A stretch of DNA of 64,000 nucleotides from Thermoplasmata archaeon (GTDB taxonomy: Archaea > Thermoplasmatota > Thermoplasmata > RBG-16-68-12 > JAFNFQ01): contig JBGPQV010000001.1 of NCBI GenBank assembly GCA_041489255.1, positions 224,001 to 288,000 of the forward strand, in the 5' to 3' direction. A program made the position numbers and the translations under genes. Shown here one piece after another: positions 3 through 56,977 of the stretch. The number at the start of each line of letters is the position of its first letter. The first letter of the stretch is position 1. The notes beneath the pieces were generated by a model. The model saw only the letters and a list, made by a program, of their open reading frames with translations. It did no database searches and had not been told where the DNA came from.

Positions 3-350
3 AGACAGGACATCGTCGCGAACGCGCAGGAGGGGCTCCTGAGGTCACTCCTCCCGATATTGGATGACTTCGACAAGGCTGTCGAGATCGCCGGGGAAGG
101 TGATTCCGGGCTGAGACTGCTGCATGCCAAGCTCCTGAAGATCCTGGAGGAGAGCGGCCTGGTTGAGATTCCCGCCAAGAGCCAGAAGTTCGACCCGTTC
201 ATCCACGACGCGGTCGAGTTCGTGAACGAGAAAGATATGGAGCACGGGACGATCAAGGAAGTCATCCGCAAGGGATATAGATGCAACATGAAGGTATTGA
301 GACCATCTCTTGTGATCGTTGTCAAGAACGAAGGTGAGAAGAATGCCTAA
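3..350 (+). CDS. grpE: Nucleotide exchange factor GrpE (5'-truncated by window edge)
   Basis: Frame is open from position 3 ([23 protein letters not shown]...FDPFIHDAV...KGY...LRPSLVIV); lies directly upstream of dnaK and overlaps its start. Confidence 0.93.
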
Positions 351-2187: not shown

Positions 2188-2221
2188 ACGGCGGGAACGC
2201 CAGATCGGATGCGCTGAGTGC

Positions 2222-3358: not shown

Positions 3359-3361
3359 CGC

Positions 3362-3523
3362 TCACGGGAGGTTCGCAATGATCGAGAACGCCTTCACCAA
3401 GAAGTAGAAGGCAATGATTGCCCCGCTCGCAATCGCAATCACAAGAACATCCTTGAGGATGATCTTCCCTAGTCCCGGTTCCGAACTGTTTGCGGCCACG
3501 TCGCCGTGTTGCGTCGAATGCAT
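3362..3523 (-). CDS. Small (53 aa) single-pass membrane protein, not in ORF track
   Basis: Translated by hand: MHSTQHGDVAANSSEPGLGKIILKDVLVIAIASGAIIAFYFLVKAFSIIANLP*; long hydrophobic helix; TTTATTAA TATA-like box about 28 nt upstream; fills the gap after dnaJ. Confidence 0.6.
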   Translation of the reverse strand: MHSTQHGDVAANSSEPGLGKIILKDVLVIAIASGAIIAFYFLVKAFSIIANLP

Positions 3524-3638
3524 CCTCAACGCCAATAATGGCCTCGCGGCTTAATAAAAATTGTTGTTTGCCTCTCGAAACTTGAAACTCAACTGGGCGC
3601 TAACCATATCTAAGCAGAGCGCGCTTCACTCTGTGAGC

Positions 3639-4388
3639 ATGAAGAAGGTCCTTGGCATCCTGACGGAGGACTTCCGCCTCTATCATGACCTGGTCGCAAC
3701 GCTGAAGGCGAGGGACATACCGTTCGTGAGCCTTTCATTCTCCGAGCGAATACCTTCCAACGTCGGGGCGATACTCACTTCCGTCGCCGAATCGCCGCGG
3801 ATCCGCTTCCCTCACAAGGCCGAGTGCGGGGACATCGAAGATTCAGTGATGAGAGCCCTGCAGTTGCTGAGAGGGAAGACCGGGTGGAAGGAGGTCATTA
3901 TAGGCATCGACCCTGGGAGCGAGCCCGGGCTGGCGGTGATCGGGGACGGGGAGGTTCTGGACGCACGGAGCGTCAATTCCCCGGAGGCGGTCGCACCCGC
4001 CGTTGTCTCGGCGATCAGCAACTTCCCGGCTGACATGTGCACTATCAGAATCGGTCACGGGGACGCGACGAACCGCAACAGGATCATCAACACCTTGGCG
4101 GAAAACGATCTCAGGGTCGACATCGTCGACGAGAAGGGAACGACCAGGCGCACAGAACACCCGGATGCGGATGCGGCAATCCGGATCGCCTTCACCCCGG
4201 GAGTGAGGGCCGCAAGGCACTATGACATCCGACCGACCGAGGGGGAGCTGAAGGAGATACAGAGAAGGAGCCGCCTGAAGAGCGAGGGGGAGATGACTAT
4301 ATCCCAGAGCCTTGCCAGGTCGGTTGCCAGAGGGGAGATGACCCTGGCAGAGGCCATCTCGGTCCACCGTCGCAGGAAGGAGCGCTAG
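3639..4388 (+). CDS. Hypothetical protein with RNase H-like (YqgF/RuvC-like) domain
   Basis: IIGIDPG...VDEKGTT...DADAA acidic pattern; start moved to ATG of MKKVLGIL. Confidence 0.7.
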   Translation: MKKVLGILTEDFRLYHDLVATLKARDIPFVSLSFSERIPSNVGAILTSVAESPRIRFPHKAECGDIEDSVMRALQLLRGKTGWKEVIIGIDPGSEPGLAVIGDGEVLDARSVNSPEAVAPAVVSAISNFPADMCTIRIGHGDATNRNRIINTLAENDLRVDIVDEKGTTRRTEHPDADAAIRIAFTPGVRAARHYDIRPTEGELKEIQRRSRLKSEGEMTISQSLARSVARGEMTLAEAISVHRRRKER

Positions 4389-4453
4389 CAGTTTTCAAAG
4401 TCAGCTAAAGGTATCCTAAGACTCATATAGTTCGTTTGACTTGAATTCAAGCC

Positions 4454-6682
4454 GTGACCGAAAAGGTCGTTCTCAAGGTTGCGGAGGCGCCACAGTCCGA
4501 CGTGGGACTTGGCAGGGCGCGAGTGGACACGAAGACCAGGATGGCCCTGGGACTCGATGTCGGTGAGATCGTCGAGATCATCGGCAAGAAAAGCACGTCC
4601 GCCAAGATCTTCAGGGTCATGCAGGAAGACGAAGGGAAGGGCATCATCAGGATAGACGGCTTGGTGAGGAGAAACGTCGGCTGCTCCATCGGTGACAGGG
4701 TCGAGGCGAAGAAGGCCGAGGTTCTGACGGCCGAGCGCGTCACGATTGCGCCGATAATCTCCGAGGGCCACAGGATCTCGTTCGGCCAGGGAATAGAGAA
4801 CTTCGCCAAGCGCGGGCTGCTGAAGAGGCCGCTCATGAAGGGGGACGTCGTCATAGTGCCCGGCATAGCGCTGATGGGCGGTGCACTGCCGTTCATGGTC
4901 GTGAAGACCACGCCTAAGGGCGTCGTCCAGATCAACGACGAGACAATCATCGAGATGAAGGAGGAACCCGTGAGGGAGGGGGAGGTGCTCACCACCGCCA
5001 TCACCTACGAGGACATAGGCGGGCTGAAGGAGGAGTTGCTCAAGGTCCGCGAGATGATCGAGCTGCCGCTGAAACACGCGGAGCTGTTCGAACGCCTCGG
5101 TATCAACCCGCCAAAGGGAGTCCTGCTCTACGGACCGCCGGGCACCGGCAAGACGCTGATCGCGAAGGCGGTAGCGAATGAGGCGGGTGCGAATTTCTAT
5201 TCCATACAGGGCCCGGAGATAATGAGCAAGTACTACGGGCAGAGCGAAGAGAGGCTCAGGGAGAAGTTCGACGAGGCGCAGAAGAACGCGCCGAGCGTGC
5301 TGTTCATCGACGAGCTGGACAGCATTGCCCCGAGGAGGGAAGAGGTCACGGGAGAGGTGGAGAGGCGGGTCGTCGCCCAACTGCTGACGCTCATGGACGG
5401 GCTGTCCGACCGCGGGCAGGTCATAGTCATCGCAGCGACCAACCGCGAGGAAGCAATCGACCCGGCTCTGAGGCGCGGGGGACGGTTCGACCGGGAAATC
5501 GAGATAGGCGTCCCGGACCGCATAGGCAGGAAGGAGATACTGCAGATCCATTCGCGAGGCATGCCGATAGAAGGCAACGAGGAGGACAGGGAGAACCTCC
5601 TCACAGAGCTGGCGAACGTCACCCACGGCTTCGTCGGGGCGGATATGGCCGCGCTGGCGCGGGAGGCGGCTATGAGGACGTTGCGGCGCTATCTCCCCGA
5701 GATAGACTTGGACAAGCCGATACCGTCCGAGATACTGGAAAAGATGCGGGTGACCCCGGGCGATTTCAAGGAAGCGCTGAAGGAGGTCGAGCCGAGCGCT
5801 ATGAGGGAGGTCCTCGTGGAGATACCGCACACCACCTGGGATGACGTCGGCGGTCTGGAGGACCTGAAAGCGAAGTTGAAAGAGGCGGTCGAGATGCCGC
5901 TCAAGGACCCCGAGTCGTTCAAGCGCATGGGCATAACCCCGCCGAGGGGTATACTGCTCTACGGCGCCCCGGGGACCGGCAAGACGCTGATCGCCAAGGC
6001 GGTCGCGACGGAATCGGAGTCGAACTTCATCAGCATCAAGGGTCCCGAGGTCATGAGCAAGTGGGTGGGGGAGAGCGAGAAGGCGGTGCGCATGATCTTC
6101 AAGAAGGCGAGGCAGGTGGCGCCCTGCATAGTCTTCCTCGACGAGATTGACGCGATAGCACACAGGCGCGGCGGGGGGGAAGGCGACTCGGGTGTCACGG
6201 AGCGGGTGGTCAACCAGCTGCTCACGTCCATGGACGGCTTGGAGAGCAGGGAGGGCGTGCTGGTGATCGCCGCCACGAACAGACCGGACATGGTGGATCC
6301 GGCGCTGCTGAGGGCGGGCCGGTTCGACAAGCTGATTCTGGTCCCTGTGCCCGACGAGAGGACCCGTCTGGAGATACTCAAGGTCCACACGAAGAGCATG
6401 CCTCTGGACGGCGACGTCTCGATCAGCGAGTTGGCCAAGGAGATTGAGGGCTACACCGGCGCAGACATCGAGGGGCTGTGCCGCGAGGCGGCCTTGTCCG
6501 CCCTGAGGGAGAACAGGAAGGCCAAGAAGGTCTCCATGAAGCACTTCGAGGAGGCCAAGAAGAGCGTGCACCCTTCGATGGACGAGGAGACGGCGAGGGT
6601 CTACGAGAGGATGGGGCAGGAGATGGAGAAAGGCATCTCCAAGAAGGAGCGCGAAGAGATCAGCATGGGGTACTATAGGTAA
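4454..6682 (+). CDS. cdc48: Cdc48/VAT family AAA+ ATPase
   Basis: N-domain plus two AAA modules ([18 protein letters not shown] Walker B, GRFD); C-terminal HbYX-like GYYR. Confidence 0.97.
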
Positions 6683-41132: not shown

Positions 41133-41840
41133 TCATCGAAGCGAGAGCCAAGGCATCAGGGTGTCGGAAGGCAGCCTGAGGCGGTAGTGCTTCCCGCCGA
41201 CCTGCAGAATTATCGTGTTCTCCCGCCTCGCATCCAGTTCCACCTCTGGGCTCAGCCTATCCCTCGCCAGCCGCCTCATCAGCCTGCTCTTCATCCCCCG
41301 CAGCATTTGACGGGTCTTCCTCTCGAATCTCGGCAGACCCTCGCCGGGGAACAGGCGGTTGTGCCTGCCATCGACAATCACCGCCACGAGACCCCGTGAC
41401 TCCATCTGGAGTGAAAGCTTCCTCACAGCCGCAACGCTGCGTCCGATCTCCGGCGCGAGCTCTGCCGGGGTCAGGCCGGGTTTCTCGACGATCATCTTCA
41501 GGATCTCTCGCCCGGAATCTTCCGCCAGCATCGCCAGAACTGGGATGTCCTCTTCCATCGGCCTCAGGTCCGAGGGATAGTAGACGCTGCTCCCGCCAAC
41601 GTCCCCAGCCGCCAAGTACTCATGTTGGGTCATCTTTCTCAGGTGGAACTGTACGACCGTCGCATTCATGCCGAGACTGCGCGCGATTGGCCTTAACCTC
41701 GAGGCGGGACGATGACAGAGGTGCTCGAAAATCCTCTGGCGGGTAGGGCTCATGAGAATGCTCTCGGACCTGCCCTTAACCTGAAAGGTCTCCGCTCCCT
41801 CGCCGACCATCGCCTTGAGAGCCTCACCGAGCCTAGGCAT
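41133..41840 (-). CDS. Double winged-helix transcriptional regulator
   Basis: RQRIFEHL...IARSLGM...VQFHL and REIL..I...PG.T..EL; overlaps the ATPase stop. Confidence 0.82.
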   Translation of the reverse strand: MPRLGEALKAMVGEGAETFQVKGRSESILMSPTRQRIFEHLCHRPASRLRPIARSLGMNATVVQFHLRKMTQHEYLAAGDVGGSSVYYPSDLRPMEEDIPVLAMLAEDSGREILKMIVEKPGLTPAELAPEIGRSVAAVRKLSLQMESRGLVAVIVDGRHNRLFPGEGLPRFERKTRQMLRGMKSRLMRRLARDRLSPEVELDARRENTIILQVGGKHYRLRLPSDTLMPWLSLR

Positions 41841-42741
41841 GCTCCTTCTCTTCCACCGAGTATTCCTCGAGTATCAAGTCTAGCAACTCGTCCGGATCGA
41901 CATCGACTAGATCCTGCTCGGAAAGCGCGTCGATCGTCTTCATAAAATTGTCCTTTGCCGTTGGCGATAGCTTGGAGAGTCTGTCCTTGTCGAGGGACAG
42001 CGCCTTCTCCTTCACTATCTTCCCAGCTTGCGCCACGCCCCGCCGCCTCGTGAGCTCCTCTACCTTCCTCACGTACACCCCGACCCCTTTCATGATGCTG
42101 TAGGGGTGCCAGTACCTGCTGTGCTTGCTGGACCTGCACTTGATAATCTTGAGCTCCCTCCTCTCAGGCGATTCGAGGCTCGCGTATCTGAGGTGGATCA
42201 AATTGTCCGCGAGGTACATCGGAATGACCAGGTCCGGGGCGGAGAGGTCGCCGACGCTGCCATGCTCCTCCAGAGTGCAGAGGACGGTTCCTATCTTCCT
42301 GGTCTCGCGGAGGAAGTATGAGACAAGCTCTCTCTGCTCGTATTTCTCCTTGACGGACCAGAGCACAGGCGTGAGGGGGTCGATCGCTATGCGCGCGTTG
42401 TGCCCCTCCCACTCGTCGACGAACTCCGCGAGCTCCTTCTGGATGAAATGCGAGAACTGCTTCCCCCCGGCGTCGACGAAGATGAGCGAGCCGTCGGAGA
42501 TGTACGAGTCGATGTCCTCCCAGCCCATGAGCTTGGAGTTCTTGACGATCTCGCTCGGGGCCTCGTCGAGGGTGATGAAAACCGCATCGTCGTTGTCAAG
42601 GAGACCCCGGCGGAGGAACTGGGTCGCGAAGGTGGTTTTGCCGGCGCCAGGCGATCCTATGACGACCGTGGTGGTGTGCTCGTTGATGCCGCCGTCCATG
42701 AGGGCATTGAGACCGTAAACGCCGGTCCGGACCTTCCTCAT
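41833..42741 (-). CDS. KaiC/RAD55-family ATPase
   Basis: TGVYGLNALMDGG, GSPGAGKT, ITLDE, IKCR.S.H. Confidence 0.9.
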   Translation of the reverse strand: MRKVRTGVYGLNALMDGGINEHTTTVVIGSPGAGKTTFATQFLRRGLLDNDDAVFITLDEAPSEIVKNSKLMGWEDIDSYISDGSLIFVDAGGKQFSHFIQKELAEFVDEWEGHNARIAIDPLTPVLWSVKEKYEQRELVSYFLRETRKIGTVLCTLEEHGSVGDLSAPDLVIPMYLADNLIHLRYASLESPERRELKIIKCRSSKHSRYWHPYSIMKGVGVYVRKVEELTRRRGVAQAGKIVKEKALSLDKDRLSKLSPTAKDNFMKTIDALSEQDLVDVDPDELLDLILEEYSVEEKEHA

Positions 42742-45734: not shown

Positions 45735-45911
45735 TCAGGTTCGTCTGTCCCCGCCCTGGCCCTTCTGCGCCTTGTACCGCGCCGAGTCGAGGTCGAGGTC
45801 CAGGTCCTCTTCCTTCGCCTTGCCCGGGCTGAATACCTTGCCCGCCTCGAACTCCAGCTTCTTGTCCTGCTTCTTCTTCTTGCGCGGCGCCTGCTCAACC
45901 TGCTGTTCCAT
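45735..45911 (-). CDS. Putative Pup/UBact-like protein modifier (58 aa, not in ORF track)
   Basis: MEQQVEQAPRKKKKQDKKLEFEAGKVFSPGKAKEEDLDLDLDSARYKAQKGQGGDRRT*; GGAGG RBS; start overlaps the PafA/Dop gene end by 17 nt; charged, likely disordered. Confidence 0.75.
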   Translation of the reverse strand: MEQQVEQAPRKKKKQDKKLEFEAGKVFSPGKAKEEDLDLDLDSARYKAQKGQGGDRRT

Positions 45912-47193
45912 GTATATCCTCCCATCTGTGAGCGTAGGGGTCGGGTAGGTCTATGCGGCGGCGGTCGCCGTCGCCGACCATCACAGTGGACCAATCGATG
46001 GACTCGATATTGAACCTGTCGCAGATTTCCCGCCTCAGCGCGGCCCTGGTGTCGCTTGGCGGCTCCTTGATCGCCTTGGCGATGTCGCCGTCCTTCAGCA
46101 GTCTATCCACGAGCCCTTTCGACTGCCTCTTGTAGAAGATGCCTCTCTCAGCTCCGACCTCCGAGTACTGCTTGCAGGCCATCATCTCGACATCGGGTCC
46201 GCTCTTGCTCTCCTTGGCCTCCTGGATGGCGAAGTACCTGTCCAGCCATTCGACCCGCCTGGCGAGTTCTTTCGATTTCCTGCCCTCGATGCCATCGAGG
46301 ACTTCCTCGAGGATTTTCAACGCGCGCTTCTCTCGATCATCCTCCACGATGTTCTCTATCTTCGCCAGGTAATATCTCTGGATCTCCACAGGCGAGACCT
46401 TCTTGCCGCTATTGAGGTGAACCTTCCAGGCTTCCGGGTTCGTCTTCTCGACGTTCTCCCACATGTCCTCGACCGGCGACTTGAGGCGGGGAGCGTCGCC
46501 GAGTTCGTCCATCTCCATGAGCTGCAGTATGGCGGTGGTGGTGAAGTGCCGCAGCAGGATCGCCACCTCGTTCATCAGCGCATCGCCGCAGATGACGTGC
46601 AGCCTGCGCCAGCTCGAGCGGTCCGAGTGTGGCTCGTCGCGCGTGTTGATGAGCCCGGTGTTGTGCATGGTCTCGCCGCTGACGACTGCGCTCGTCAAAT
46701 ATATCATCGGCGATAGGACATACTTCCCGTCGAGGATGTCTCCCGCCCCCGTGTAGATGAACCTGGTGCTGAAGTGCGGCACTAGCTCCTTCACGAACTT
46801 CTCAGGGAAGTCCACGGACCTGTCGACGATGTAGTTCTCATGGCTCCCGTAGCTGACTCCCTCGGGTGACGTGTTGTTCTTGAACGCCCAGATCCTCTCC
46901 CCGCTTGAGAGGTACTTCTCCTCCGTCACCCGCCTCAGCCAATCGATCACCTTCTCGCCCGCCTTCTCCCACAGGAGCATGTCGAATGGGTTGCTCACCT
47001 CGCAGGTGCTCAGCTCGAAGTGACCGACGTCGTAGTAGCAGCGAGAGCCGTTGGTGATGAACTCCCCCGCCAGCTGAAGGTCGCTCTCGCTCAACAGCTC
47101 GAGCGCGAGGGTATGAGGGTCGAACCCCTTGGAGGCAAGCTTCTTCGAGTACATCGTGTACTCGAGTTCTGTCCCCTGGATCCTCTTTCTCAT
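45895..47193 (-). CDS. PafA/Dop family (Pup ligase/deamidase) enzyme
   Basis: GTELEY, NGSRCYYDVGH.E, KNN....SYGSHENY, INTRDEPH, RRLHVICGD, PPSDTRA. Confidence 0.95.
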   Translation of the reverse strand: MRKRIQGTELEYTMYSKKLASKGFDPHTLALELLSESDLQLAGEFITNGSRCYYDVGHFELSTCEVSNPFDMLLWEKAGEKVIDWLRRVTEEKYLSSGERIWAFKNNTSPEGVSYGSHENYIVDRSVDFPEKFVKELVPHFSTRFIYTGAGDILDGKYVLSPMIYLTSAVVSGETMHNTGLINTRDEPHSDRSSWRRLHVICGDALMNEVAILLRHFTTTAILQLMEMDELGDAPRLKSPVEDMWENVEKTNPEAWKVHLNSGKKVSPVEIQRYYLAKIENIVEDDREKRALKILEEVLDGIEGRKSKELARRVEWLDRYFAIQEAKESKSGPDVEMMACKQYSEVGAERGIFYKRQSKGLVDRLLKDGDIAKAIKEPPSDTRAALRREICDRFNIESIDWSTVMVGDGDRRRIDLPDPYAHRWEDIHGTAG

Positions 47194-47195
47194 CC

Positions 47196-48752
47196 TTATC
47201 CTACCATCGGGTCTCCGCCGGCGCTCTTGAATATCTCCCTCTGCCTCTTCTCGTAGAGGTAGACATCGGTTATCGCGTGCTCCTTCGACTCTTCCTCAAT
47301 CGCCTGCTGGAAGTCGTTCAGGTTCAGCCCCTCCTTTTCCCGCTCGGCCTTCTTGAGGTTGAGAATCCTCTTGACGTAATTCTTCTTGGCGGTCTTCACG
47401 ACGGCGGCGATGATTGCTCCGGAGACTATGTCCTTCCTCTTGACGGTCTTGATCGCTTCCTTGGCGTCCGGATCGGTTTTCACCCTGACCCACTTGCTCT
47501 CTCCGTAGAACTCATCAAGCACTGCATTCCTCAGGTACCGGATCGCCTTCTCGTGGTCGCCTTGCTCCCTGACGATGCCCGCTTCGACCGGAAGATCGCC
47601 TGCCAAGTAGATTGAGAGGATCTCCTCGGCCATCTTCCTGCTTGGCCTGGGTATCTCGATTATCTCGTCGAACCGACCGGGCCTAAGGAGTGCCGGATCC
47701 AAGAGATCGGCCCTGTTGGTCGCGCCTATCACGAATACGTCGTGAAGCTCCAGCAGGCCGTCCATCTCGCTGAGTATCTGCGCGATTATGTTCTTGTGCA
47801 CACCTGAGGTGTCCATGTAGCCCCTCACGGTGAAGACCGCCTCGATCTCATCGAAGAAGACGATGCTTGGCCGTCTCTCGTGTGCTTGGCGGAATATCTC
47901 CTTGATGAGCCGCTCGCTTTCCCCCACCCACTTGCTCAGCACGTCGGCGATGCTGACGTTGAAGAATGTCATGTCGTTCTCGGTCGCGACGGCCTTCACC
48001 ATGAGGGTCTTCCCGCATCCAGGCGGACCGTGAAGCAGTATGCCCCGGGGCGCCTCCAGGTTGATCTTCTTGAACAGCTTCTGCTCCTTGAACGGGAGAA
48101 TCGTCACATCCCTGATCCTCTCGATAGCCTCCCCCAGTCCGCCAATCTGCGCATAGTGGACATTCGGCTTCTCACCCAGCAGCAGGTTCTTCACTTCAAG
48201 ATTCGGGAGGACCTCGATCAGCTCCATGGTCGGCGGGAGGACAGATATCTGGAACCCGGGCTTCAGCTTCCCGATGATCTCCTTCTCGGCGGAGACCAAC
48301 CTCTTCTCCATGTCGCCTTCGACAGTGATCACAAGCTTGCCTTCGAGGATGTCAGCGACCTTCGCAATCACTCCTTCATTTCTGGCGTTGCTGCTCTCGA
48401 CAATCGCGTATGTCTGCGGATGAACCCAGACGTACTGCCCTATGTTCAGCGTCGACTTGTCGACGAGGCCTGTGCTGACCTTCAGGAGCTCCATCGACCT
48501 CGCGACCACGACCTGGCTCGCGTCGAGATCCGGTCCTTCCTTCCTGACGACGTAGGCATATAGCAGAGGCGGCTGCTTGATCTTGTTGAATTTCTCCTCA
48601 TAGGCCTTGAGCCTATACTCCCTCTCATCCACCTCATAGCGGAAGGCCTGCAGATCCCTCTCGTACTGCCGCTTGAGTCGGTCGAGCTTCTCCTCGTACT
48701 CTTCCTTCATTTCGTCGAGCGATTCCTGATCCTTTTGCTTGGTTTCCGGCAT
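47196..48752 (-). CDS. arc: ARC/Mpa-type proteasomal AAA+ ATPase
   Basis: N-terminal coiled coil, QPP motif, two OB-like segments, GPPGCGKT, KWVGE, FFDE, DPALLRPGRFD, SGAII...V..AKK. Confidence 0.88.
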   Translation of the reverse strand: MPETKQKDQESLDEMKEEYEEKLDRLKRQYERDLQAFRYEVDEREYRLKAYEEKFNKIKQPPLLYAYVVRKEGPDLDASQVVVARSMELLKVSTGLVDKSTLNIGQYVWVHPQTYAIVESSNARNEGVIAKVADILEGKLVITVEGDMEKRLVSAEKEIIGKLKPGFQISVLPPTMELIEVLPNLEVKNLLLGEKPNVHYAQIGGLGEAIERIRDVTILPFKEQKLFKKINLEAPRGILLHGPPGCGKTLMVKAVATENDMTFFNVSIADVLSKWVGESERLIKEIFRQAHERRPSIVFFDEIEAVFTVRGYMDTSGVHKNIIAQILSEMDGLLELHDVFVIGATNRADLLDPALLRPGRFDEIIEIPRPSRKMAEEILSIYLAGDLPVEAGIVREQGDHEKAIRYLRNAVLDEFYGESKWVRVKTDPDAKEAIKTVKRKDIVSGAIIAAVVKTAKKNYVKRILNLKKAEREKEGLNLNDFQQAIEEESKEHAITDVYLYEKRQREIFKSAGGDPMVG

Positions 48753-48993: not shown

Positions 48994-50145
48994 TCATGAC
49001 AGCCCGTGATACTTGAACGCTTTCCTCTTGACGCCGTCGACGACCTTCTTCACCGCACTCGACACAGCGCCGCCATCCTGTGTTTCCTCGGAATCCCTCA
49101 GCGTCCCGCCTTTCGGGGCGATCGCGTATGTGATCTTGCAGTACTCCATCCATTCGATCGGCAGGTCGTTTGCCAGCTCCTTCCCGAGCATCCTGGCGAA
49201 GAAGAGAGCCCATATCCTCGGGCAGATCATGATATCATAACCGCCGCCAGTCACCGCCACCCATCGCCCGCCGCCATATCTCCTCGAAATCTCGTCGAAG
49301 TCCCTGCCGATCTCCTCGTAAGCCCGCGTGGTCAGGTTCAGGTGGGCCAGCGGGTCGGCGAAGTGCGCGTCAGCGCCGAGCTGGGTGAACAACACCTCTG
49401 GCTTGAACGCCTCTGCCAAAGGGATGACGATTTCTTTGAAGGCATGCAGATAGCTCGCGTCTCCCGAGTATGGGGGCAACGGGACGTTCACGGTGTAGCC
49501 CTCCCCGTCACCCGTGCCGATCTCATCGATGTCGCCTGTCCCTGGGAATAAATAGTGACCGTCCTCGTGGATTGAGACTTTCAGGACTCGGGGATCGTCG
49601 ATGAATATCGATTGCACACCGTCTGCATGATGAACATCTATGTCGACGTACATCACCCTGCTCAGGCCATATTTTCCGAGCAACCGCTTTATGCCAACGG
49701 CAATATCATTCAGGAGACAAAACCCGGACGCTCTCGCAGGCATGGCATGGTGGAACCCGCCACCTAGGTTCATGGCCTTTTCCGTCTCCCCTTTCGCGAC
49801 CGCATCGCAGGCGAGCATGGTCCCGCCGACATGGAGGCTTGCCGCCTCGAACATCCCTGCGAACACCGGATTGTCCGAGATGCCCAGACCGTGTGAGAAC
49901 GATTGGCCGTCCGGGTGCTCGCTCAAGTGCTCGAGAACCTCTAGGTAGCCTCTGTCGTGCACGGCGATCAGGTCTTCGTATTCGGCGAGGCTGGGTTTCA
50001 TTTCGACCGCGCCCTTCGGCCCTATGAGCCCGTAATCCTGCATGAGCATCTTCGTGAGGAGGAGCCGCTCCTCCCTCATTGCATGCCCTTCCCCGAAATT
50101 GTATTTTAGGTACTTGTCATCATAGACAAGGACAGGGCTGGCCAT
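48994..50145 (-). CDS. Zn-dependent lysine deacetylase (AcuC/HDAC family)
   Basis: GGFHHA, SGFC..ND, DIDVHHADG, FPGTG, QLGAD, GGGY. Confidence 0.93.
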   Translation of the reverse strand: MASPVLVYDDKYLKYNFGEGHAMREERLLLTKMLMQDYGLIGPKGAVEMKPSLAEYEDLIAVHDRGYLEVLEHLSEHPDGQSFSHGLGISDNPVFAGMFEAASLHVGGTMLACDAVAKGETEKAMNLGGGFHHAMPARASGFCLLNDIAVGIKRLLGKYGLSRVMYVDIDVHHADGVQSIFIDDPRVLKVSIHEDGHYLFPGTGDIDEIGTGDGEGYTVNVPLPPYSGDASYLHAFKEIVIPLAEAFKPEVLFTQLGADAHFADPLAHLNLTTRAYEEIGRDFDEISRRYGGGRWVAVTGGGYDIMICPRIWALFFARMLGKELANDLPIEWMEYCKITYAIAPKGGTLRDSEETQDGGAVSSAVKKVVDGVKRKAFKYHGLS

Positions 50146-50184: not shown

Positions 50185-50928
50185 TCAGATGAGCCATCCA
50201 CCCGTTACGTTGATGACGTCACCGGTGACGAAACCCGCCTCATCGGAGACGAGGAAAGCCACGGCGGCGGCGATGTCCCACGAAGTCCCCGGCCTGCCGA
50301 CCGAGGTCTCTTTGTCTTTGACCTCGAGTGCCTCCTTGACGGTCCTCTCCTTGTCCGCGACGACGCCGGGAGCGACCGCGTTGACCGTGATCCCGCTCCT
50401 CCCGACCTCTCGGGCGAGCGACTTGGTGAACGCGACGACTCCCGCCTTCGCGGCATAGAACGCGGACATGCCGGACGCCCCGTGCGCCCTGTATGCGCCC
50501 GCGGCGGCGAGATTCACTATCCTTCCCCACTTTTGCTTCTTCATGATCGGCAACACCTGCCTGGAGCACAGGAACGCGGCGGTGACGCTCGTGTCCAAGA
50601 CCCTCCGCCATTCACCGAGCGACATCGCCTCCACATCCTTTGTAATCCAATCGCCAACGTTGTTGACCAAGATGTCGAGTCGGCCAAAGTGAGTATGAAC
50701 CTTGTCCACGAGCTCGGCGACCTCCACCTCTCTCGTCACGTCTGCCTTGATGGCCAGAGCCTTGCGGCCCTTCGATTCGATTTCCTTGACAACCTCCAAC
50801 GCCTCTGCCTGACTGTGCAGATAGTTGACGGCGATGTCCGTCCCTTTCTCTGCTAGGGTCAGGGCTATGGCCCTTCCTATGCCTTTCGCTGCCCCCGTGA
50901 CCAGCGCCACGCGTACTGGGAGCGTCAC
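50185..50928 (-). CDS. SDR family oxidoreductase (FabG-like)
   Basis: TGAAKGIG, LVNNVG, YAAK, NAVAPG. Confidence 0.92.
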   Translation of the reverse strand: MTLPVRVALVTGAAKGIGRAIALTLAEKGTDIAVNYLHSQAEALEVVKEIESKGRKALAIKADVTREVEVAELVDKVHTHFGRLDILVNNVGDWITKDVEAMSLGEWRRVLDTSVTAAFLCSRQVLPIMKKQKWGRIVNLAAAGAYRAHGASGMSAFYAAKAGVVAFTKSLAREVGRSGITVNAVAPGVVADKERTVKEALEVKDKETSVGRPGTSWDIAAAVAFLVSDEAGFVTGDVINVTGGWLI

Positions 50929-50989: not shown

Positions 50990-53900
50990 TTAGATTTCGT
51001 CTTCCTCCTCGGTCTCCGCCTCTTCGATCTCCACCTTCTTCTCCGCTCTCTTCTCTTCCTTGGGCATCTGTTTCGGCTGCTGCTTCTCCGGCTGCAACTC
51101 CTCCTCTTCCTCGATTTCGCCCAAGTCCTCCTGAGGACCCTGGAGAGCGCGAATCTTGCGGCTTATCGCGAAGTACATCCCGATGAGACCGACGAACAGC
51201 ATCACGATCAGCAACACCATCCCCATCATCAGCACGTTGCCCAGGCCGTCCAGGTCTGACTTGAGCGTCCTGATGTCGCCCGACGTCTGGTTGAGCGCGT
51301 CGAGCCTGCCCTGGATCGTGGTCAGCTGATTGTTGACATTGGTGATATCCTGACTCTGCTGGTTGATCGTGTCATTCATGTCTGCGATCTGGTTGTCCAG
51401 GTTATCGATTTGGTTGTTGAGGTCATTAATCATGCCGAGCAGCAACGTGATTTGATTCTGCAAGCCGGCGATATCAGGCGCGATGTAGGTCACGTCTCGC
51501 GTCTGCTGGTTCGTGTTGCCGGCCTGGTCGGTCGCCGTGATATAAATCGTATTGACTCCGTCAACCAAGAGGGCCACGATTGTATCGAAGCCTCCTGTCG
51601 AGTCCACCATAGCCATCTGTCCGTTGACTGTGATCGTTGCGCTGGGCTCGGTCGTTCCCCTGACCTCCACCGATGGGACTGTCGTCTGGTACAACGGCGC
51701 GGGCATCGCAATCGCCAGTGTCGGCGCGACCGTGTCGAGTGTGATGGTCTTGAGCACCGCCGCCATGTTCCCTGCGACGTCTGTCGCATTGACCCAGATG
51801 TTCTTCCCTCCGTCGCTTCCCAGGCCCACCGTCGTCGTGAAGCTGCCGTCGCCCGCCACCGCAACCGGTGCTGAGTTGACGGCCACAGTGGCAGAAGGCT
51901 CGGTCTGACCGGAGACAGTTAAGGCCGGATTGTTGGTGTACGCTCCTGTTGGAGACGTGATCGTCACGGCTGGCGATACCGTGTCCACGGTGACGCCGAT
52001 GATCTCGACATGGGCGTTACTAGCGGGATCTGTCGCCACTACCCGGATTGAATTGCTGCCTTCTTTCAATGCAATAGTGACCGCAAAATCACCGACATTG
52101 TTCACCGCAGCGTTGATGCCCTCAATCACGACCGACGCCCCTCGTTCGGTCGTGCCCGCCACCACCACCGTCCTCTCTTTGATGTAGGAACCTGCAGTGG
52201 GGGAGGTGACCGTGAGTGCTGGAGGTTGGGTGTCGAGTTCGATGTCCTTATGGAGCAAGGCGGTATTGCCGACCAAGTCTGTCGCCTCTATCTGAATGGT
52301 GTTCGGCCCCTCGACAAGGTTCGTCGAACTGCTGAACGCACCATTCGTGGTCGCTGTCGGCACTCCATTGATCAGCACCGTGGCGATGGTCGACTCCGTG
52401 TAACCGACCACGTTCACCGCAGGCTGATTCGTGATGCTGACCGCAGGAGACGTGAGGACTATGATGGGTGCCGAATTGTCCACACCGAACGTGAACATTA
52501 GTGAAGCGAGGTTCGGCGTGGTGGCGAGGTCGTACATCTGGATGTCCACCGTATGCTGTCCCTCGCTCAGCAGGAAGGTCAGGTTCCACCACAATTCTCC
52601 GGCCACGATTCTCGCAGACGAGGTCACATCGCGCCCGTCCAAGGTCAGGAGTATGCTGTTCATGTCGACGCCCGAGTAGAACGCTCCCCGAACGTCATCG
52701 AAGGAGACGTCGATTATCGGGACGTCGGATGTCCTGTAGTCGATTCCTGCCGAGGGTGAGTTCAGGGTTATCGTAGGCGGTGTCGTATCGCGCGCCATGA
52801 GCAGCACCGGCATCTCGATGGTCGTCGGCGCCCCCATTGGCCCGATGAAGATGACGCCATAGTAATCACCTTCGACATCGGGGATATCGTAGTCGATATC
52901 GAAAGTGTAAGGCGTGTTGGCGACGATTGGACCAGAGGGCACGTTCGCCGGATCCAGATCCAGTCCCGCTCTCAGGTCGACCGTCAGGTCGAAAGTCGCA
53001 CCCGGCATCGGCACGGTGAATCCGTGCACCTCGATTCTGTACGTCCCGTCGTCTGGCAGCGTCAGCTTCACCCTCTCGTTGGCTGTCGGCGAGGTCGAGG
53101 AACCGACGGGCACTTCGCCGCCGCCCGGCAGCTCGTAATACACGTAAAGGTCGAGATCGATGGGGAACGCCGAAGTCAATGTGATGTCCATCAGTCCCGC
53201 GTGAACAGAGTCGACAAGGAAGCTGACCCGTTCATCCTGGGTGATTGGATAGACATACGTTGTCGGCTCGGAGACCCCGTAGGCCCTGACCTCCATCCCG
53301 TCGGGCATATCCATCGTCGACATGAAGTCGAACGTCTTCACGCCCGAGCTCTGCGACAGCTGTTCGGTCCACGGGAATGGATTGACGTTCACGAAACCCG
53401 TCGCTCCCGAGAACACTTCCGAAGGCCCTTCGCCCGCGTAGAGGACGTTGTGCAGGGCAATCTCGTGCAGACCATTCGCGGCAGGCCCTGAGACCCATTC
53501 CTCCGGACCGCCTGTCGCCGTATTGAATAACCAAGTGCCCGCTCCTATGTTCATGTTCGGGCTGCCGCCGACTTGGGAAAGTGCGTATGGTCCGAAAAGG
53601 GAAGGCATCGCATTCGAGAAGTCGTCCGGGGTAGGACCGAATAATAGCGTGTCTATGTCGGTCGGATAGTTGTTCCATTTCGTGTGTATGAGGAAACGGG
53701 TGCCGCCCGTGATCGGCGTGCTGTCCGGCACGTCCATGAAATAGAACCGCCAATCCCCCGCTTCCGGTCGCCATGACCAGTCCTGGCCGCCATACATGCG
53801 GCCATTGTCATAGTAGCTCGTGTTGCTGGTGTCCTCCTGGAAGGTTATGTCCTGACTGTTCCCGGCGACGTTTATCACGATCGGTATGACCGTCTCGTTC

Positions 53901-56788
53901 GAACCGGTATCCTTGAGGATCACCATCGCGCTGTAGACGCCCACCGCGGCCGTTGGCGGCACACTCACCGTCACTCTGAGCGTCTGCGTCGCTCCGGCAC
54001 CGAGCGTCACGGTCGCCTTGTCTTCCGTGATCCACGCCGAATCAGCAAGCTCATAGAACTCCAGGACGACGTGAACCCTCGTGCTCGGAATCGCCGGATC
54101 CCGGTATCTGTGGATAACGCCGAACAGTAGAGCATCGTCGACCCTCGTGAACGGATCGTGCACGAATGCGTTCTGGACGTTCGAAAATCCGTATGCATAG
54201 GTGAACCTCATGTATTCTACCTGCCCGCCAACGTTGTCGAGCTCGCCCGAGTTCACCACACCGTTGCCGTTCAAATCGTCCCAATAAAGGCCGTTGCCAT
54301 TGAGGTCCTTCCAATCGTAGAACAGCGCCCTGTAAGCGCTGTTCATGGTGTAATCGTACTCTGGGTCGAACGATGCGAAGTCGGTGTACGCAATCCCCCG
54401 TACGAATTTGGTGGTCGGATAAGCCGAGAGCATCGCGCTGACGTTCCACAGGTAGTCGGGCCTATTGCTGCTGGGACTGCTTTCATCCGAGTTGTTCGAC
54501 CAGATGTCAAACGTCCGTTCTCCCGCCTTCCTGAGGACGGCATCCGAGATCGACCACTGCTGAGCCGAACCCCCTCGGTTCGTGAGCTGGAAATCTTTCC
54601 ATGTCGTGTCTCCTGCGCTCATCACATGCGCGAAAGAGGGGTAGTCAGTGCCTCTGTAGCCGCCAGGCGTCCAAGATGATGGTGAAGCACGCACCCCATA
54701 GAGTCCATTGGCAAGCATCGTCGAACGTTCCGCGTTCGTGAGCCCGGCACCCATGACGAGCGGATCATAGTTGATGTTATCCGCGCCGTTCATCAGGAAC
54801 TCCTTGACCATGGTGTTCGTGGGATACACGGACGCGCCTTGTTCGTAGGCGTCATAGATCAACGCAACAATGCCGGCAGTCGCGGGTGAGGACAAGCTCG
54901 TTCCTCCCCAGATGCTCCAGGAATTCGTGCCGTTGCTCTGGCCTGCGGATACGGTATTGATGGCGTTGTCGCCCGACGCCCATGCGCCCACAGTCACCAC
55001 GTCGGGATCGACGTTGCCCAGAGAACTCGGTCCCCGGTTGGACCACGGCTGGACATCGCCGAAGGTCCACATAGGCCCGTTCTCCCAGGTCGTCTTCGCC
55101 CCACTGTAGTAGCTGGTCGATGCACCCACCGATATCACCGATTTACTGCCGCCCGGCGGAGTCACAGTCCCGAACCCATAGCCGCCATTTCCCGTCGATG
55201 CAACGTAGGTCGTGCCGTCGTAGTACGAAGTCAGCAAGTCGATGAAGCGCGACTCGTAATCCCAGCCGTCATTGTCGACATTAGAGGTACCGTAGCTTGA
55301 GCTGCTTACCATCGCCTCGTCGCCAGTCCCCGGGACTCCGTCGTATCCCTCAGCGGCGAACGGGTAGATGTCCGTCCAGAAACCTCCGAAGTAGATGTCA
55401 CCAACGGCGACTATCCTGGCGTCGGGCGCGAAGCCCTGCACCCTTCCTGTCACATTCTGCGCCACCACAGCGGAGGAACACATGGTGCCGTGGTCTCCTC
55501 CCGCTGCATATGCATCACCAATCATGAATGCAGTCAAATTCCCGTTGCCAGGTATCGTATTAATCAGTCCGTAACGGTCCGCCACAACGTCCGAGTACGG
55601 AATGGGATTGACGCCGTTCGCGATGAAATAGATTAGACCGCCAGAAACGTCGGGCATTCCGTCGCCCCAATCCCAGGAGGATTCGTCATAGCCGCCGGTG
55701 CTCGCGTCCCTGTAGTCAGCGTAGGAGATTGGGCTGAAGATGTCCACGGGTTTGTCGTTAAGGAAGTTGTCATCGTCGTTGAGGTCGACGTAGATTGTAT
55801 CGTAGACGAATGGAACCGCGCTGTCTGTCAGAAGGACGCCTGGGCTGTGGCTGCCGAACCTCGCCGCCAGCGTCGGCGCCGGGTGTACGCCGAGATGGTA
55901 CCAACCGCTCGCGCTCGGGACGCTGGTGACGTTGTAGTTCCTATCATTGAAGAGTGGCAGGAGACCGTTGACATCAGCCGTGGCATTGAAACTCGTGTCG
56001 ACGTACCACGAGGGGGCCGCAGGGTATGAAGCCCCGCCGAAATAGAGGTAAACGTACATCGAGAACGGATCGAACGCAATCGGCCAGAGATAGTAGGGCG
56101 AGGAGGTGTTCTCCTCAATGGCCCACGTACCCAACAGGTCAGGATTGGCGAAGTCGACGCCCGAATCCAAGATTGCGACCCTGACGTCAGAGCCCGTGAA
56201 GCCTCTCGCCCAGGCGTCCGTCACATGGTGGCCCTGGGCCGCTCTTATTGTGTTCACGCCGGGTTCGGCCGCACTGTCTGGACTCTCCTGACGTCCATTC
56301 TCCGATTCCGGATTGAGTATCTCCAGTGGCTGCGGGACCACGAACAACGATACCCCACCGACGCTGTCGAGATAGGCTATCTTGGCTGCGATGACTGCAG
56401 GCATGTCGACGATCACGGGTCGGAGGCCCGTGCTTTTTGAGGGCGCCTTGCCAACCGGGGTATCCACGCCCATCGCCCTCAGCGTTCTGCCGAGTGCCGC
56501 AGGGTCCGTTGTGTAGACTGTGACCCTGACCACCTGCTCCGGATTTTGCATGATCATGTCCTTGAGGCTCACGGAGATCTTGTTCAAGTATGACGTGTCA
56601 GGATAGAGGCCGCTTAGGCTGGTGAACGGCGACACCTGATTCTTCTCGCTCTGGCTTGCCGTCGCCGTGGCGGTGACGGTTCTTGATGCCGAGACCCGTG
56701 GCACCGAGACCAAGACCGCGAGCGACGATATCAAGACCAACGCTGCGACGACGATTGCCCCACTTCTTCCACCGACCGCTGTCTTCAT
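50990..56788 (-). CDS. Giant membrane-anchored S8 (subtilisin/pyrolysin-like) protease
   Basis: Signal peptide, ILDSGVD, HGT, GTSLSSP triad; PPC and Ig-like repeats, coiled coil, C-terminal TM and acidic tail; GGAGGT RBS. Confidence 0.92.
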   Translation of the reverse strand: MKTAVGGRSGAIVVAALVLISSLAVLVSVPRVSASRTVTATATASQSEKNQVSPFTSLSGLYPDTSYLNKISVSLKDMIMQNPEQVVRVTVYTTDPAALGRTLRAMGVDTPVGKAPSKSTGLRPVIVDMPAVIAAKIAYLDSVGGVSLFVVPQPLEILNPESENGRQESPDSAAEPGVNTIRAAQGHHVTDAWARGFTGSDVRVAILDSGVDFANPDLLGTWAIEENTSSPYYLWPIAFDPFSMYVYLYFGGASYPAAPSWYVDTSFNATADVNGLLPLFNDRNYNVTSVPSASGWYHLGVHPAPTLAARFGSHSPGVLLTDSAVPFVYDTIYVDLNDDDNFLNDKPVDIFSPISYADYRDASTGGYDESSWDWGDGMPDVSGGLIYFIANGVNPIPYSDVVADRYGLINTIPGNGNLTAFMIGDAYAAGGDHGTMCSSAVVAQNVTGRVQGFAPDARIVAVGDIYFGGFWTDIYPFAAEGYDGVPGTGDEAMVSSSSYGTSNVDNDGWDYESRFIDLLTSYYDGTTYVASTGNGGYGFGTVTPPGGSKSVISVGASTSYYSGAKTTWENGPMWTFGDVQPWSNRGPSSLGNVDPDVVTVGAWASGDNAINTVSAGQSNGTNSWSIWGGTSLSSPATAGIVALIYDAYEQGASVYPTNTMVKEFLMNGADNINYDPLVMGAGLTNAERSTMLANGLYGVRASPSSWTPGGYRGTDYPSFAHVMSAGDTTWKDFQLTNRGGSAQQWSISDAVLRKAGERTFDIWSNNSDESSPSSNRPDYLWNVSAMLSAYPTTKFVRGIAYTDFASFDPEYDYTMNSAYRALFYDWKDLNGNGLYWDDLNGNGVVNSGELDNVGGQVEYMRFTYAYGFSNVQNAFVHDPFTRVDDALLFGVIHRYRDPAIPSTRVHVVLEFYELADSAWITEDKATVTLGAGATQTLRVTVSVPPTAAVGVYSAMVILKDTGSNETVIPIVINVAGNSQDITFQEDTSNTSYYDNGRMYGGQDWSWRPEAGDWRFYFMDVPDSTPITGGTRFLIHTKWNNYPTDIDTLLFGPTPDDFSNAMPSLFGPYALSQVGGSPNMNIGAGTWLFNTATGGPEEWVSGPAANGLHEIALHNVLYAGEGPSEVFSGATGFVNVNPFPWTEQLSQSSGVKTFDFMSTMDMPDGMEVRAYGVSEPTTYVYPITQDERVSFLVDSVHAGLMDITLTSAFPIDLDLYVYYELPGGGEVPVGSSTSPTANERVKLTLPDDGTYRIEVHGFTVPMPGATFDLTVDLRAGLDLDPANVPSGPIVANTPYTFDIDYDIPDVEGDYYGVIFIGPMGAPTTIEMPVLLMARDTTPPTITLNSPSAGIDYRTSDVPIIDVSFDDVRGAFYSGVDMNSILLTLDGRDVTSSARIVAGELWWNLTFLLSEGQHTVDIQMYDLATTPNLASLMFTFGVDNSAPIIVLTSPAVSITNQPAVNVVGYTESTIATVLINGVPTATTNGAFSSSTNLVEGPNTIQIEATDLVGNTALLHKDIELDTQPPALTVTSPTAGSYIKERTVVVAGTTERGASVVIEGINAAVNNVGDFAVTIALKEGSNSIRVVATDPASNAHVEIIGVTVDTVSPAVTITSPTGAYTNNPALTVSGQTEPSATVAVNSAPVAVAGDGSFTTTVGLGSDGGKNIWVNATDVAGNMAAVLKTITLDTVAPTLAIAMPAPLYQTTVPSVEVRGTTEPSATITVNGQMAMVDSTGGFDTIVALLVDGVNTIYITATDQAGNTNQQTRDVTYIAPDIAGLQNQITLLLGMINDLNNQIDNLDNQIADMNDTINQQSQDITNVNNQLTTIQGRLDALNQTSGDIRTLKSDLDGLGNVLMMGMVLLIVMLFVGLIGMYFAISRKIRALQGPQEDLGEIEEEEELQPEKQQPKQMPKEEKRAEKKVEIEEAETEEEDEI

Positions 56789-56977
56789 TCCCTTGACCTC
56801 CTTTGATAAGACAGAGCAACACAGTTGCTCAGCGAAATTCGATATTCCCCGCATGCTGCGTGCACCGGGATGAGGGGCGCAACATCGAGCGGCGTAATAA
56901 AAGTTGGTGCACCACATCCCGTTCGAAGGGAGGCGGCAAGGCGAGGTTTAATGAATGCGCATGCCCTCCTCCGCTTC

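Follow-up and report, generated by a model that had tools for sequence, protein, structure and literature searches.

Can the whole cycle of a pupylation-like protein modification be run by one enzyme, and in an archaeon? In the literature consulted, pupylation is treated as bacterial, mainly actinobacterial, and as reliant on two specialised enzymes, and the origin of ligase and hydrolase from one ancestor is an open question. A three-gene cassette in a Thermoplasmata archaeon (GenBank assembly GCA_041489255.1) bears on this question. It lies in a stretch of 64,000 nucleotides (nt) of contig JBGPQV010000001.1 (positions 224,001 to 288,000), called here the window, and codes for an Mpa/ARC-like AAA ATPase, an enzyme of the family to which the Pup ligase PafA and the depupylase Dop belong, and a small protein that is the candidate modifier. 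We propose, with a confidence that only just outweighs our doubt, that this is a single-enzyme, pupylation-like tagging cassette native to a Thermoplasmatota group, which would act via an internal Glu or Gln of the tag. The proposal is built on the cassette and its conservation, the single copy of the enzyme gene, its separate lineage, its intact catalytic core, the internal Glu/Gln followed by a conserved tail, and the co-variation of enzyme and tag.

The cassette and its host

47196..48752, minus strand: Mpa/ARC-like AAA ATPase of 518 amino acids (aa), first gene of the cassette, matching TIGR03689
45895..47193, minus strand: Pup-ligase-family enzyme of 432 aa, matching PF03136, of an archaeal-type lineage that is neither PafA nor Dop
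45735..45911, minus strand: candidate modifier, a small protein of 58 aa with a Pup-like K-G-Q, directly downstream of the enzyme
45917..45923, minus strand: Shine-Dalgarno-like GGGAGGA, read from the sequence, 5 nt before the ATG of the small open reading frame (ORF)

The three genes are tightly packed. Two nt separate the stop codon of the AAA gene from the ATG of the enzyme gene, and the small ORF shares 17 nt with the 3' end of the enzyme gene, within which the GGGAGGA, a putative ribosome-binding-like signal for the small ORF, also falls. An earlier interpretation of the bare DNA letters (the sequence-only reading) had placed the enzyme gene directly upstream of a modifier, and this overlap bears it out. 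In Actinobacteria the gene order is mpa-dop-pup, with dop directly upstream of pup, and the order AAA-enzyme-tag of the cassette is equal to it.

The host genome is a metagenome-assembled genome (MAG) of 2.74 Mb in 41 contigs, 96.5% complete. It carries the archaeal ribosomal protein L21e, a family that was found in the control set only in its four archaea. The window also codes for Orc1/Cdc6, a Cdc48 ATPase, KaiC-like proteins and haloarchaeal-type helix-turn-helix (HTH) proteins, and its GC content is uniform along its length. The actinobacterial setting assumed by the sequence-only reading has consequently to be abandoned in view of L21e, Orc1/Cdc6 and the archaeal relatives of the enzyme; it is owing to this assumption that the archaeal host, the internal E/Q with its tail, the lost conserved enzyme residues and the unlinked proteasome genes were all missed.

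It could be objected that a bacterial contig was mis-binned into an archaeal genome, since the family is known from bacteria and one partial locus (L088) belongs to a record labelled as a Proteobacteria MAG. We give this explanation next to no credence, given the Orc1/Cdc6, Cdc48 and haloarchaeal-type HTH genes of the window, its even GC content, the archaeal L21e of the genome, and the origin of 70 of the 79 related loci from MAGs labelled archaeal by many different submitters. The L088 record itself covers residues 1-128 of an enzyme of archaeal type (49% identity), situated at a contig end, and is either a case of mis-binning or one of transfer.

A single gene outside PafA and Dop

PF03136 has one match in the host genome. 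It is matched in 24 of 41 genomes of the order and, in an even sample of the phylum (at least 80% complete), in 18 of 401, the host genome being included in both counts. Four genomes gave double matches (G015, G029, G033 and G142), each of which is a single gene in pieces that do not overlap and that are either neighbours or located at contig ends; at neither level did any of the matching genomes show two full-length copies. As every double match is a pair of fragments, no two-paralogue genome was seen in the Thermoplasmatota group. The observation that the locus holds only one such gene can therefore be extended to the whole host genome, and the suggestion, made along with it, that a partner enzyme lies elsewhere finds no support there or in the related genomes with a match.

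In the exhaustive database search, the archaeal clade was represented by one full-length sequence (63% identity), followed by a neighbour at 38% (277 bits), the others reaching at most 195 bits. A careful maximum-likelihood tree (65 rows, 453 columns, LG+C20+F+G4) splits an archaeal-type superclade of 21 rows from the 44 rows of bacterial forms with a support of 100/99 and a branch length of 0.65. The superclade comprises two Thermoplasmatota clades, forms from anaerobic methanotrophic archaea (ANME), Methanosarcinales and Nitrosotalea, one Nitrososphaerales protein and two proteins for which no taxonomic origin was found. On the bacterial side, PafA (11 rows, 100/98) and Dop (16 rows, 99/98) are each monophyletic and both exclude the enzyme of the window; a quick tree of 82 rows gives the same picture. 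The enzyme was thus found in neither the PafA clade nor the Dop clade, and its placement in these trees is that of a third lineage. The divergent clade surmised from the sequence is supported, and the paralogue count and the tree together leave the enzyme nested in neither known group and with no second full-length paralogue.

Mixed signature and intact core of the enzyme

Membership of the family follows from the match to the Pfam Pup_ligase model PF03136 (289 bits over residues 12-404; gathering cut-off 25). The enzyme falls below the cut-offs of both specific models, at nearly equal scores: 250.2 bits against the PafA model TIGR03686 (cut-off 551.3) and 246.5 bits against the Dop model TIGR03688 (cut-off 492.3). 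When 90 of the 134 full-length representatives (at least 400 aa) from the exhaustive search were labelled with NCBIfam, 6 lay above the PafA cut-off, 24 above the Dop cut-off and 60 above neither.

These near-equal scores agree with the mixture of Dop and PafA signatures that the sequence-only reading had described, and every motif that it quoted is present. With residue numbers following the window's enzyme (P0001), they are GTELEY 7-12, YDVG 54-57, FKNNT 104-108, YGSHENY 115-121, GAG 149-151, ET..G.INTRDEPH 174-189, GDA 203-205, PP.DTRA 378-384, DW 400-401 and DP 418-419. As discriminating features, YDVG, FKNNT (through F104), DW, GDA, PP.DTRA and E174 can be retained, whereas YGSHENY, NTRDEPH and GAG are common to both families and do not discriminate.

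Columns were compared in an alignment of 90 rows overall, with three sets: Dop (16 rows, of which 12 exceed the cut-off and 4 fall just short of it), PafA (11 rows, 6 and 5 respectively) and the archaeal relatives (39 rows). A30, F45, V56, G57, F104, S172 and D400 of the enzyme are PafA-like: PafA has F at 45 in 11/11 rows, D at 400 in 10/11, and V/T and G at 56-57 in 11/11, where Dop has H (15/16) and A (13/16). Dop-like features are L41, A42, S62, E174, A205, D381 and the lack of an additional residue after D-V-G; Dop has S at 62 in 12/16 rows as against A in 11/11 PafA rows, and D at 381 in 12/16 as against T in 9/11. The enzyme lacks, as had been noticed earlier, the Dop loop, in which about 40 residues are inserted behind the first strand: 37 residues lie between E11 and N48 in all 39 archaeal rows, compared with 34-43 in PafA and 67-100 in Dop. 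Of the positions listed as discriminating in Table 1 of Hecht et al. (PMC7947786), 7 are PafA-like in the enzyme, 5 are Dop-like, 1 is common to both families and 10 resemble neither, so that the PafA-specific set of that table is incomplete in it. By sequence, the nearest solved structures are those of Dop (192 bits, vs 140 bits for PafA).

The residues for metal binding, ATP binding and catalysis are retained (E9, E11, Y53, D55, E60, H118, R185, H189, H199 and W401), and of these E9, E11, Y53, D55, E60, H118, R185 and H199, the core expected of a family member, vary little or not at all in the 90-row alignment. The corresponding set given for Acel Dop, with its GhExE motif, metal and ATP ligands, catalytic Asp and phosphate-binding Arg, is E8, E10, Y92, D94, E99, H155, R227 and H241 (PMC8599861). 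As the metal and ATP ligands, D55, R185 and H199 are intact, the enzyme is probably catalytically active. An AlphaFold2 model from the same alignment has a mean predicted local distance difference test score (pLDDT) of 94 and a predicted template-modelling score (pTM) of 0.93. In Foldseek, its query-normalised template-modelling (TM) score is 0.87-0.90 for five full-length Dop chains, 0.79 for a shorter one (9cku_G) and 0.80-0.87 for PafA, a fit of much the same quality to both. T175, kept in 39/39 archaeal rows, is the equivalent of Dop T217, which hydrogen-bonds the terminal Gln of Pup according to section 6 of PMC8599861.

The small protein carries an internal Glu or Gln

The small protein has a basic N-terminus, an acidic middle and a C-terminus of the form ...SARYKAQKGQ-GGDRRT (in sequence, ...SARYKAQKGQGGDRRT). 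Q52 is the seventh residue from the end, and the six-residue tail that follows K-G-Q means that the free C-terminal GG-Q/E of Pup is lacking. Variable sites are distributed 24/19/51 over the three codon positions, and codon differences are synonymous in 1712 cases vs 859 non-synonymous (454 vs 105 in the last nine codons); the small ORF is a real gene under purifying selection, and the tail is under selection too.

Across both Thermoplasmatota clades, G24, F27, D36, K50, G51, G54 and R56 are invariant, which gives a K-G-[E/Q]-[G/A]-G-[D/T]-R signature. Among 103 database clusters of the tag, all unnamed or 'hypothetical' and free of Pfam domains, 98 contain KG-x-GGDR, with Q as x in 69, E in the other 29 and no third residue in any; 2-13 variable residues come after GGDR. 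On a tree built from 47 enzymes, position 52 switches state no fewer than 11 times, 8 of these changes being forced by the starred branches, as compared with a mean of 13 for shuffled labels (rows L050 and L052 of this tree are cut, with internal stops, and sit on long branches). Even near-identical relatives differ in E vs Q at this position.

Enzyme and tag change together

In both Thermoplasmatota clades whose tags have a tail, residue 179 of the enzyme is Thr, residue 163 is Met, Ser or Cys (alignment A2 has one row with Gly), and residues 175-176 are TM or NL. The 48 bacterial rows have R163 in 44 and R179 in 43, with mostly TT and some TM at 175-176. Five archaeal enzymes of the cluster type with tags ending in GE or AE (the tag was seen in four clusters) have R163, R179 and T175-T176; in these other archaeal branches the tag ends ...YAT[S/A]GE (Nitrosotalea and ANME) or ...LYRARSAE (Nitrososphaeria). 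Two arginines that are conserved in both PafA and Dop are thus, as far as the alignments go, lost in the enzymes that go with tailed tags. In the alignment, T179 stands opposite R201 of Corynebacterium glutamicum PafA, which is bound by a salt bridge to the C-terminus of Pup according to section 6 of Cui et al. (PMC8599861).

It can be hypothesised that, where the reactive Glu/Gln is internal, the enzyme needs no grip on a free alpha-carboxylate and the arginine was lost for this reason. The tail, with its invariant arginine, may in turn have taken on a role of its own. The tag could also be cleaved right after E/Q52 by another protease, or after GG as in ubiquitin-like precursors; we rank such cleavage below retention of the tail because GGDR is invariant and the arginine that contacts the C-terminus is lost in the enzyme.

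The ATPase of the cassette

The AAA ATPase matches the pup_AAA model TIGR03689 with 349.6 bits over residues 42-492, below the cut-off of 504.75, and PAN models with 268 bits over residues 128-383 only. The Mpa chains 5kwa and 7px9 match it in one stretch (residues 42-466). Its domains are those of the Mpa/ARC architecture: an N-terminal coiled coil, Prot_ATP_ID_OB_C at 129-183 and a single AAA domain at 238-368. Its C-terminus, ...DPMVG, is identical in 17/17 relatives compared; four of the five bacterial Mpa-type neighbours compared end in G[QH]YL and the fifth in RQYM. The host genome also has a PAN-like gene ending in ...VMYA (HbYX-type) and two Cdc48-like genes, beside which the Mpa-like ATPase is the fourth unfoldase of such kind.

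Distribution of the cassette in archaea

The closest database proteins (120 among the matches listed) are 66-100% identical to the enzyme, and their named sources are Thermoplasmata, Methanobacteriota and Euryarchaeota MAGs. They are called 'proteasome accessory factor PafA2 family protein', 'proteasome accessory factor A', 'pup-ligase protein' or 'hypothetical protein'. A locus scan with one genome per species yielded 79 loci: 63 Thermoplasmatota-type, 2 Nitrososphaeria, 5 Methanosarcinales/Methanophagales/Methanoxibalbensis, 1 partial 'Proteobacteria' and 8 bacterial with canonical enzymes. Labels of the Thermoplasmatota-type loci are Thermoplasmata, Thermoplasmatota, Methanomassiliicoccales, Thermoplasmatales, Methanobacteriota, Euryarchaeota and, once, Halobacteriales.

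The core clade consists of 51 loci with enzymes at least 58% identical to P0001. The AAA gene is directly upstream in 38 of them; in 6 only its 3' end is present, at a contig edge, and 7 have no upstream sequence. The small ORF is directly downstream in all 47 loci with downstream sequence, the contigs of the remaining 4 stopping within 56 nt. A second-tier Thermoplasmatota clade (12 loci, 48-54% identity) has a homologous small ORF ending ...FQGKKGQAGTRT[KR]xxx in 6/12 loci, and 2/12 have no downstream sequence. A metagenome protein of 690 aa (P0101), in which the C-terminal part of the AAA protein reads through into the enzyme (...DPMVE-GR-MRKMVQGTEHEY...), is either a natural fusion or a sequencing error.

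A different arrangement is found in Nitrosotalea and ANME/Methanosarcinales (L085:2990-6790, L094:3137-6915, L091:720-4007 and L095:3190-6527), with an AAA gene, two tandem family paralogues and a tag ending ...YAT[S/A]GE; in Nitrosotalea and in two genomes of ANME type, the tandem paralogues were seen between ATPase and tag. The catalytic Asp, R163, R179 and TT are all retained in paralogue B; in paralogue A the catalytic Asp is replaced by Cys, and Lys and Trp stand at the equivalent sites. The quick tree makes sisters of the two (Shimodaira-Hasegawa-like approximate likelihood ratio test 94), but both branches are long and attraction is possible. Tandem sister paralogues in archaea with GE tags suggest a duplication separate from the PafA/Dop split. 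In a Nitrososphaeria MAG, a convergent 50-aa ORF ending ...KLALYRARSAE (L083:3174-3326, minus strand) adjoins a single Pup-ligase-family gene and is a candidate tag with a terminal Glu; its end, ...LYRARSAE, aligns by eye with ...ARYKAQKGE, which brings the terminal Glu to position 52.

Neighbouring genes and transcription

An HDAC-family amidohydrolase (48994-50145, minus strand; PF00850, 300 bits) lies 241 nt upstream of the cassette, with a short-chain dehydrogenase (50185-50928, minus strand) just upstream of it. HDAC-type enzymes cleave N-epsilon-acyl-lysine amides. Homologues of the two genes precede the AAA gene in 25 and 24 core-clade loci respectively, and are missing from second-tier and other archaeal loci. 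On the other side, a convergent aldo-keto reductase follows the tag gene in the window; a scan of 62 Thermoplasmatota-type loci shows, in 26 of them, a 320-aa ORF of the LAGLIDADG family (PF00961/PF14528) that starts about 70 nt past the tag gene, for example at L023:6521-7483 (plus strand).

Further away on the minus strand, a 1975-aa ORF (50990-56917) combines a subtilase domain (Peptidase_S8) with four glucodextranase-B-like repeats and Ig-like domains and is probably a large secreted or surface protease, and at 41133-42741 a 302-aa KaiC-like ATPase precedes a 235-aa double winged-helix protein whose HTH domains are of haloarchaeal type. On the plus strand, DnaK, DnaJ and a Cdc48/VAT-type double-AAA ATPase occupy 319-6682.

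In the metatranscriptome X20, short contigs are 93-99% alike to parts of all three cassette genes and one crosses the AAA/enzyme junction, with half of the bins devoid of coverage; this is a weak hint of transcription, as the RNA library may contain DNA. A scan of the window for sigma-70 promoters and terminators gave no signal above shuffled controls, archaeal promoters being outside its models, and an Rfam scan found a single tRNA and nothing else.

Proposed mechanism and its rivals

In the mechanism that we propose, the single enzyme, a carboxylate-amine ligase of the PafA/Dop family, would use ATP to activate the side-chain carbonyl of residue 52 (Glu or Gln) of a disordered, Pup-like tag and would join this residue to lysines of target proteins. 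With Gln tags, as in the host, the same enzyme would first deamidate the residue, in a Dop-like step, or use the amide directly. The conserved GGDR... tail would stay on the conjugated tag, and the AAA ATPase would recognise and unfold the tagged proteins, presumably for an archaeal 20S proteasome coded elsewhere. We infer ligation as the minimal function, since a tag and an unfoldase would be pointless in the absence of a ligase and no second member of the family was found. As Gln stands at position 52 in the host and in most tag clusters, and as E and Q swap freely, the same enzyme would have to handle the amide, either by deamidation or by direct ATP-driven transamidation. It is in this sense that the bifunctional enzyme suggested by the sequence-only reading is supported; a combination of ligase activity and amide handling is plausible from the sequence data.

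Several results weigh against this proposal. The small ORF matches no Pfam family at E<=10 and no NCBIfam family, and hence not Pup PF05639, which the canonical Pup proteins of L081 and L084, taken as positive controls, match at 76 and 81 bits; in hhalign, it reaches a probability of 0.13 vs canonical Pup and 0.42 vs the GE-ended archaeal proteins. The C-terminus of the AAA ATPase has neither an HbYX nor a GQYL proteasome-docking motif, and the two proteasome-family genes of the host are on other contigs, unlinked to the cassette. In the second-tier clade, no tailed ORF adjoins the enzyme in 4/12 loci with at least 491 nt of downstream sequence. Attachment of the archaeal stem as sister to Dop (-2.55 log-likelihood units, p-AU 0.43) and as sister to PafA (-3.72 units, p-AU 0.41) are both acceptable by approximately unbiased (AU) tests. 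In the enzyme, 14 positions that hardly vary among the 48 bacterial rows carry other residues in the 39 archaeal core-clade rows, so that its chemistry or substrate may differ. Lastly, the alpha-loop (residues 166-179), which is a loop in Dop and a helix in PafA (Hecht et al., PMC7947786; section 6 of Cui et al., PMC8599861), is predicted by the AlphaFold2 model as a strand (169-172) and coil (173-179), with no PafA-type helix, at a pLDDT of about 84 vs the mean of 94 and from an input alignment that mixed both families; such a Dop-like loop would favour a hydrolase by the argument of Hecht et al.

The cassette might not conjugate anything. The small protein would then be an adaptor, a regulator or a substrate of the AAA protein, or its E/Q52 would be modified with a small amine by the glutamine-synthetase-like enzyme. 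Pup homology is not detectable in the small protein, whose reactive-looking residue is internal, conserved enzyme positions are changed (the 14 above) and the ATPase lacks proteasome-docking motifs, all of which suits such a reading. It leaves aside the parallels with pupylation in gene order, tag size, charge pattern, the Q-K-G-E/Q motif, the constraint to E or Q alone and the full-length Mpa match, and in view of these we regard it as improbable.

If the enzyme conjugates, it might act as a ligase only, with PafA-like attachment, use of the Q-forms by ATP-driven transamidation, and removal, if any, by an unrelated amidohydrolase such as the HDAC-family protein encoded upstream. Tagging needs a ligase above all, as stated in the Discussion of PMC7947786, and the absence of the Dop loop, F45, V56-G57 and D400 are PafA-like. 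The HDAC-family gene stands upstream here and in 25 related loci, and it is conceivable that its product removes the tag; it does not occur in the second-tier loci, in the loci of other archaea or in some 10 core loci whose flanks are complete, and with so patchy an occurrence the linkage may be mere shared ancestry, and the arrangement mere synteny. The modelled alpha-loop is Dop-like and has no helix, and Dop is the slightly better match in sequence (192 vs 140 bits) and fold (TM 0.87-0.90 vs 0.80-0.87). On these grounds we hold a pure ligase to be unlikely.

The opposite case, a Dop-like amidase that deamidates Q52 or frees the tag, attachment being carried out by something else or absent, appears to us decidedly improbable. 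It would agree with the position of the gene directly upstream of the tag, like that of actinobacterial dop, with Dop as the best match in the PDB, with an alpha-loop modelled as a loop and with T175 kept in 39/39 rows. It fails to provide a ligase, as no other family member is available and a tag with an unfoldase and no ligase has no obvious use; moreover, deamidation would be needless in the 29/98 tag clusters that already have Glu, and the Dop loop is missing. A single enzyme with both ligase activity and amide handling is the reading that we favour.

A wider picture can be drawn from it, which we consider possible rather than probable. Pupylation-like tagging would extend beyond bacteria to several archaeal lineages with their own deep branch of the PafA/Dop family; in one of them, the Thermoplasmatota enzyme would run the whole cycle (amide handling, ligation and perhaps removal of the tag) through internal Glu/Gln coupling, to yield a branched conjugate with a free GGDR tail, whose Arg may replace the lost active-site arginines in trans; and the ANME/Nitrosotalea duplication would be a convergent second split.

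Comparison with known systems

The databases already call the enzyme a PafA2-family protein, so the existence of the gene is not new; the system is. Its novelty lies in an archaeal host, in one undivided enzyme that belongs to a third lineage, in a reactive residue placed internally ahead of a conserved tail, and in the corresponding changes of the enzyme. The word 'archaea' does not occur in Hecht et al. (PMC7947786), Thermoplasmata genome papers and reviews checked by term search are silent on such enzymes, and searches on pupylation with archaeal taxa, family names and UBact found no paper on them, most subscription journals and supplements lying outside the search. A widespread single-copy enzyme that mixes residues of PafA and Dop would allow the divergence of ligase and hydrolase, which Hecht et al. 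(PMC7947786) could approach by mutagenesis alone, to be tested directly, and a second, independent duplication in other archaea would do likewise. An internal conjugation residue with a conserved tail would mean a new chemistry for this tag family. The system would also give archaea a third path to proteasome-linked proteolysis, next to SAMP/ubiquitin-like tags and PAN/Cdc48, and this path would run in abundant soil and sediment Thermoplasmatota.

With Dop of Acidothermus cellulolyticus (PDB 4B0R/7OXY) the enzyme shares the fold and the core, and Dop is its best match in the PDB by sequence and by fold; the gene is likewise upstream of the tag, and S62, E174, D381 and the modelled alpha-loop are Dop-like. 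It differs in having no Dop loop, in scoring below the TIGR03688 cut-off, in lying outside the Dop clade, in the replacement of H95-A96 by V-G and in the loss of the equivalents of R205 and R221. The fold is also that of C. glutamicum PafA (PDB 4B0T/4BJR), with which it has in common a compact N-terminal region and the PafA-like F45, V56-G57, S172 and D400. In contrast to PafA, it scores below the TIGR03686 cut-off, falls outside the clade, has no extra residue after D-V-G and no alpha-helix at 166-179, and carries Thr at the equivalent of R201.

The ATPase resembles Mpa/ARC over its full length, from the coiled coil to the AAA module, and as the first gene of the cassette, but differs by a score below the cut-off and by its DPMVG end. 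Like Pup, the candidate tag is small, charged and coded right after the enzyme, and its ...Q-K-G-[E/Q] is comparable to the ...Q-[RK]-G-G-[E/Q] of Pup; the canonical Pup beside bacterial enzymes ends ...YVQ[RK]GG[E/Q]. The alternation of E and Q between species in Pup (GGE/GGQ) is also seen at position 52 of the archaeal tag. UBact is a small disordered modifier ending in GGQ or GGE. In Pup and UBact the E/Q is terminal, whereas in the archaeal tag it is internal and followed by GGDR and 2-13 residues.

The closest precedent for a lone enzyme comes from some Planctomycetes, whose single PafA/Dop homologue served as outgroup in section 5 of Hecht et al. 2020 (PMC7947786) and was regarded there as a paralogue that stands apart from the duplication; like the enzyme described here, it is the only family member and about equally distant from PafA and Dop. 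In our tree, the group with the Planctomycetota-labelled P0150 sits on the bacterial side of the 100/99 split, apart from the archaeal clade. A promiscuous ligase ancestor is proposed in the same work (Hecht et al., PMC7947786), and, if the archaeal enzyme does run the whole cycle, it would be a living example of this promiscuous enzyme as it was before the duplication.

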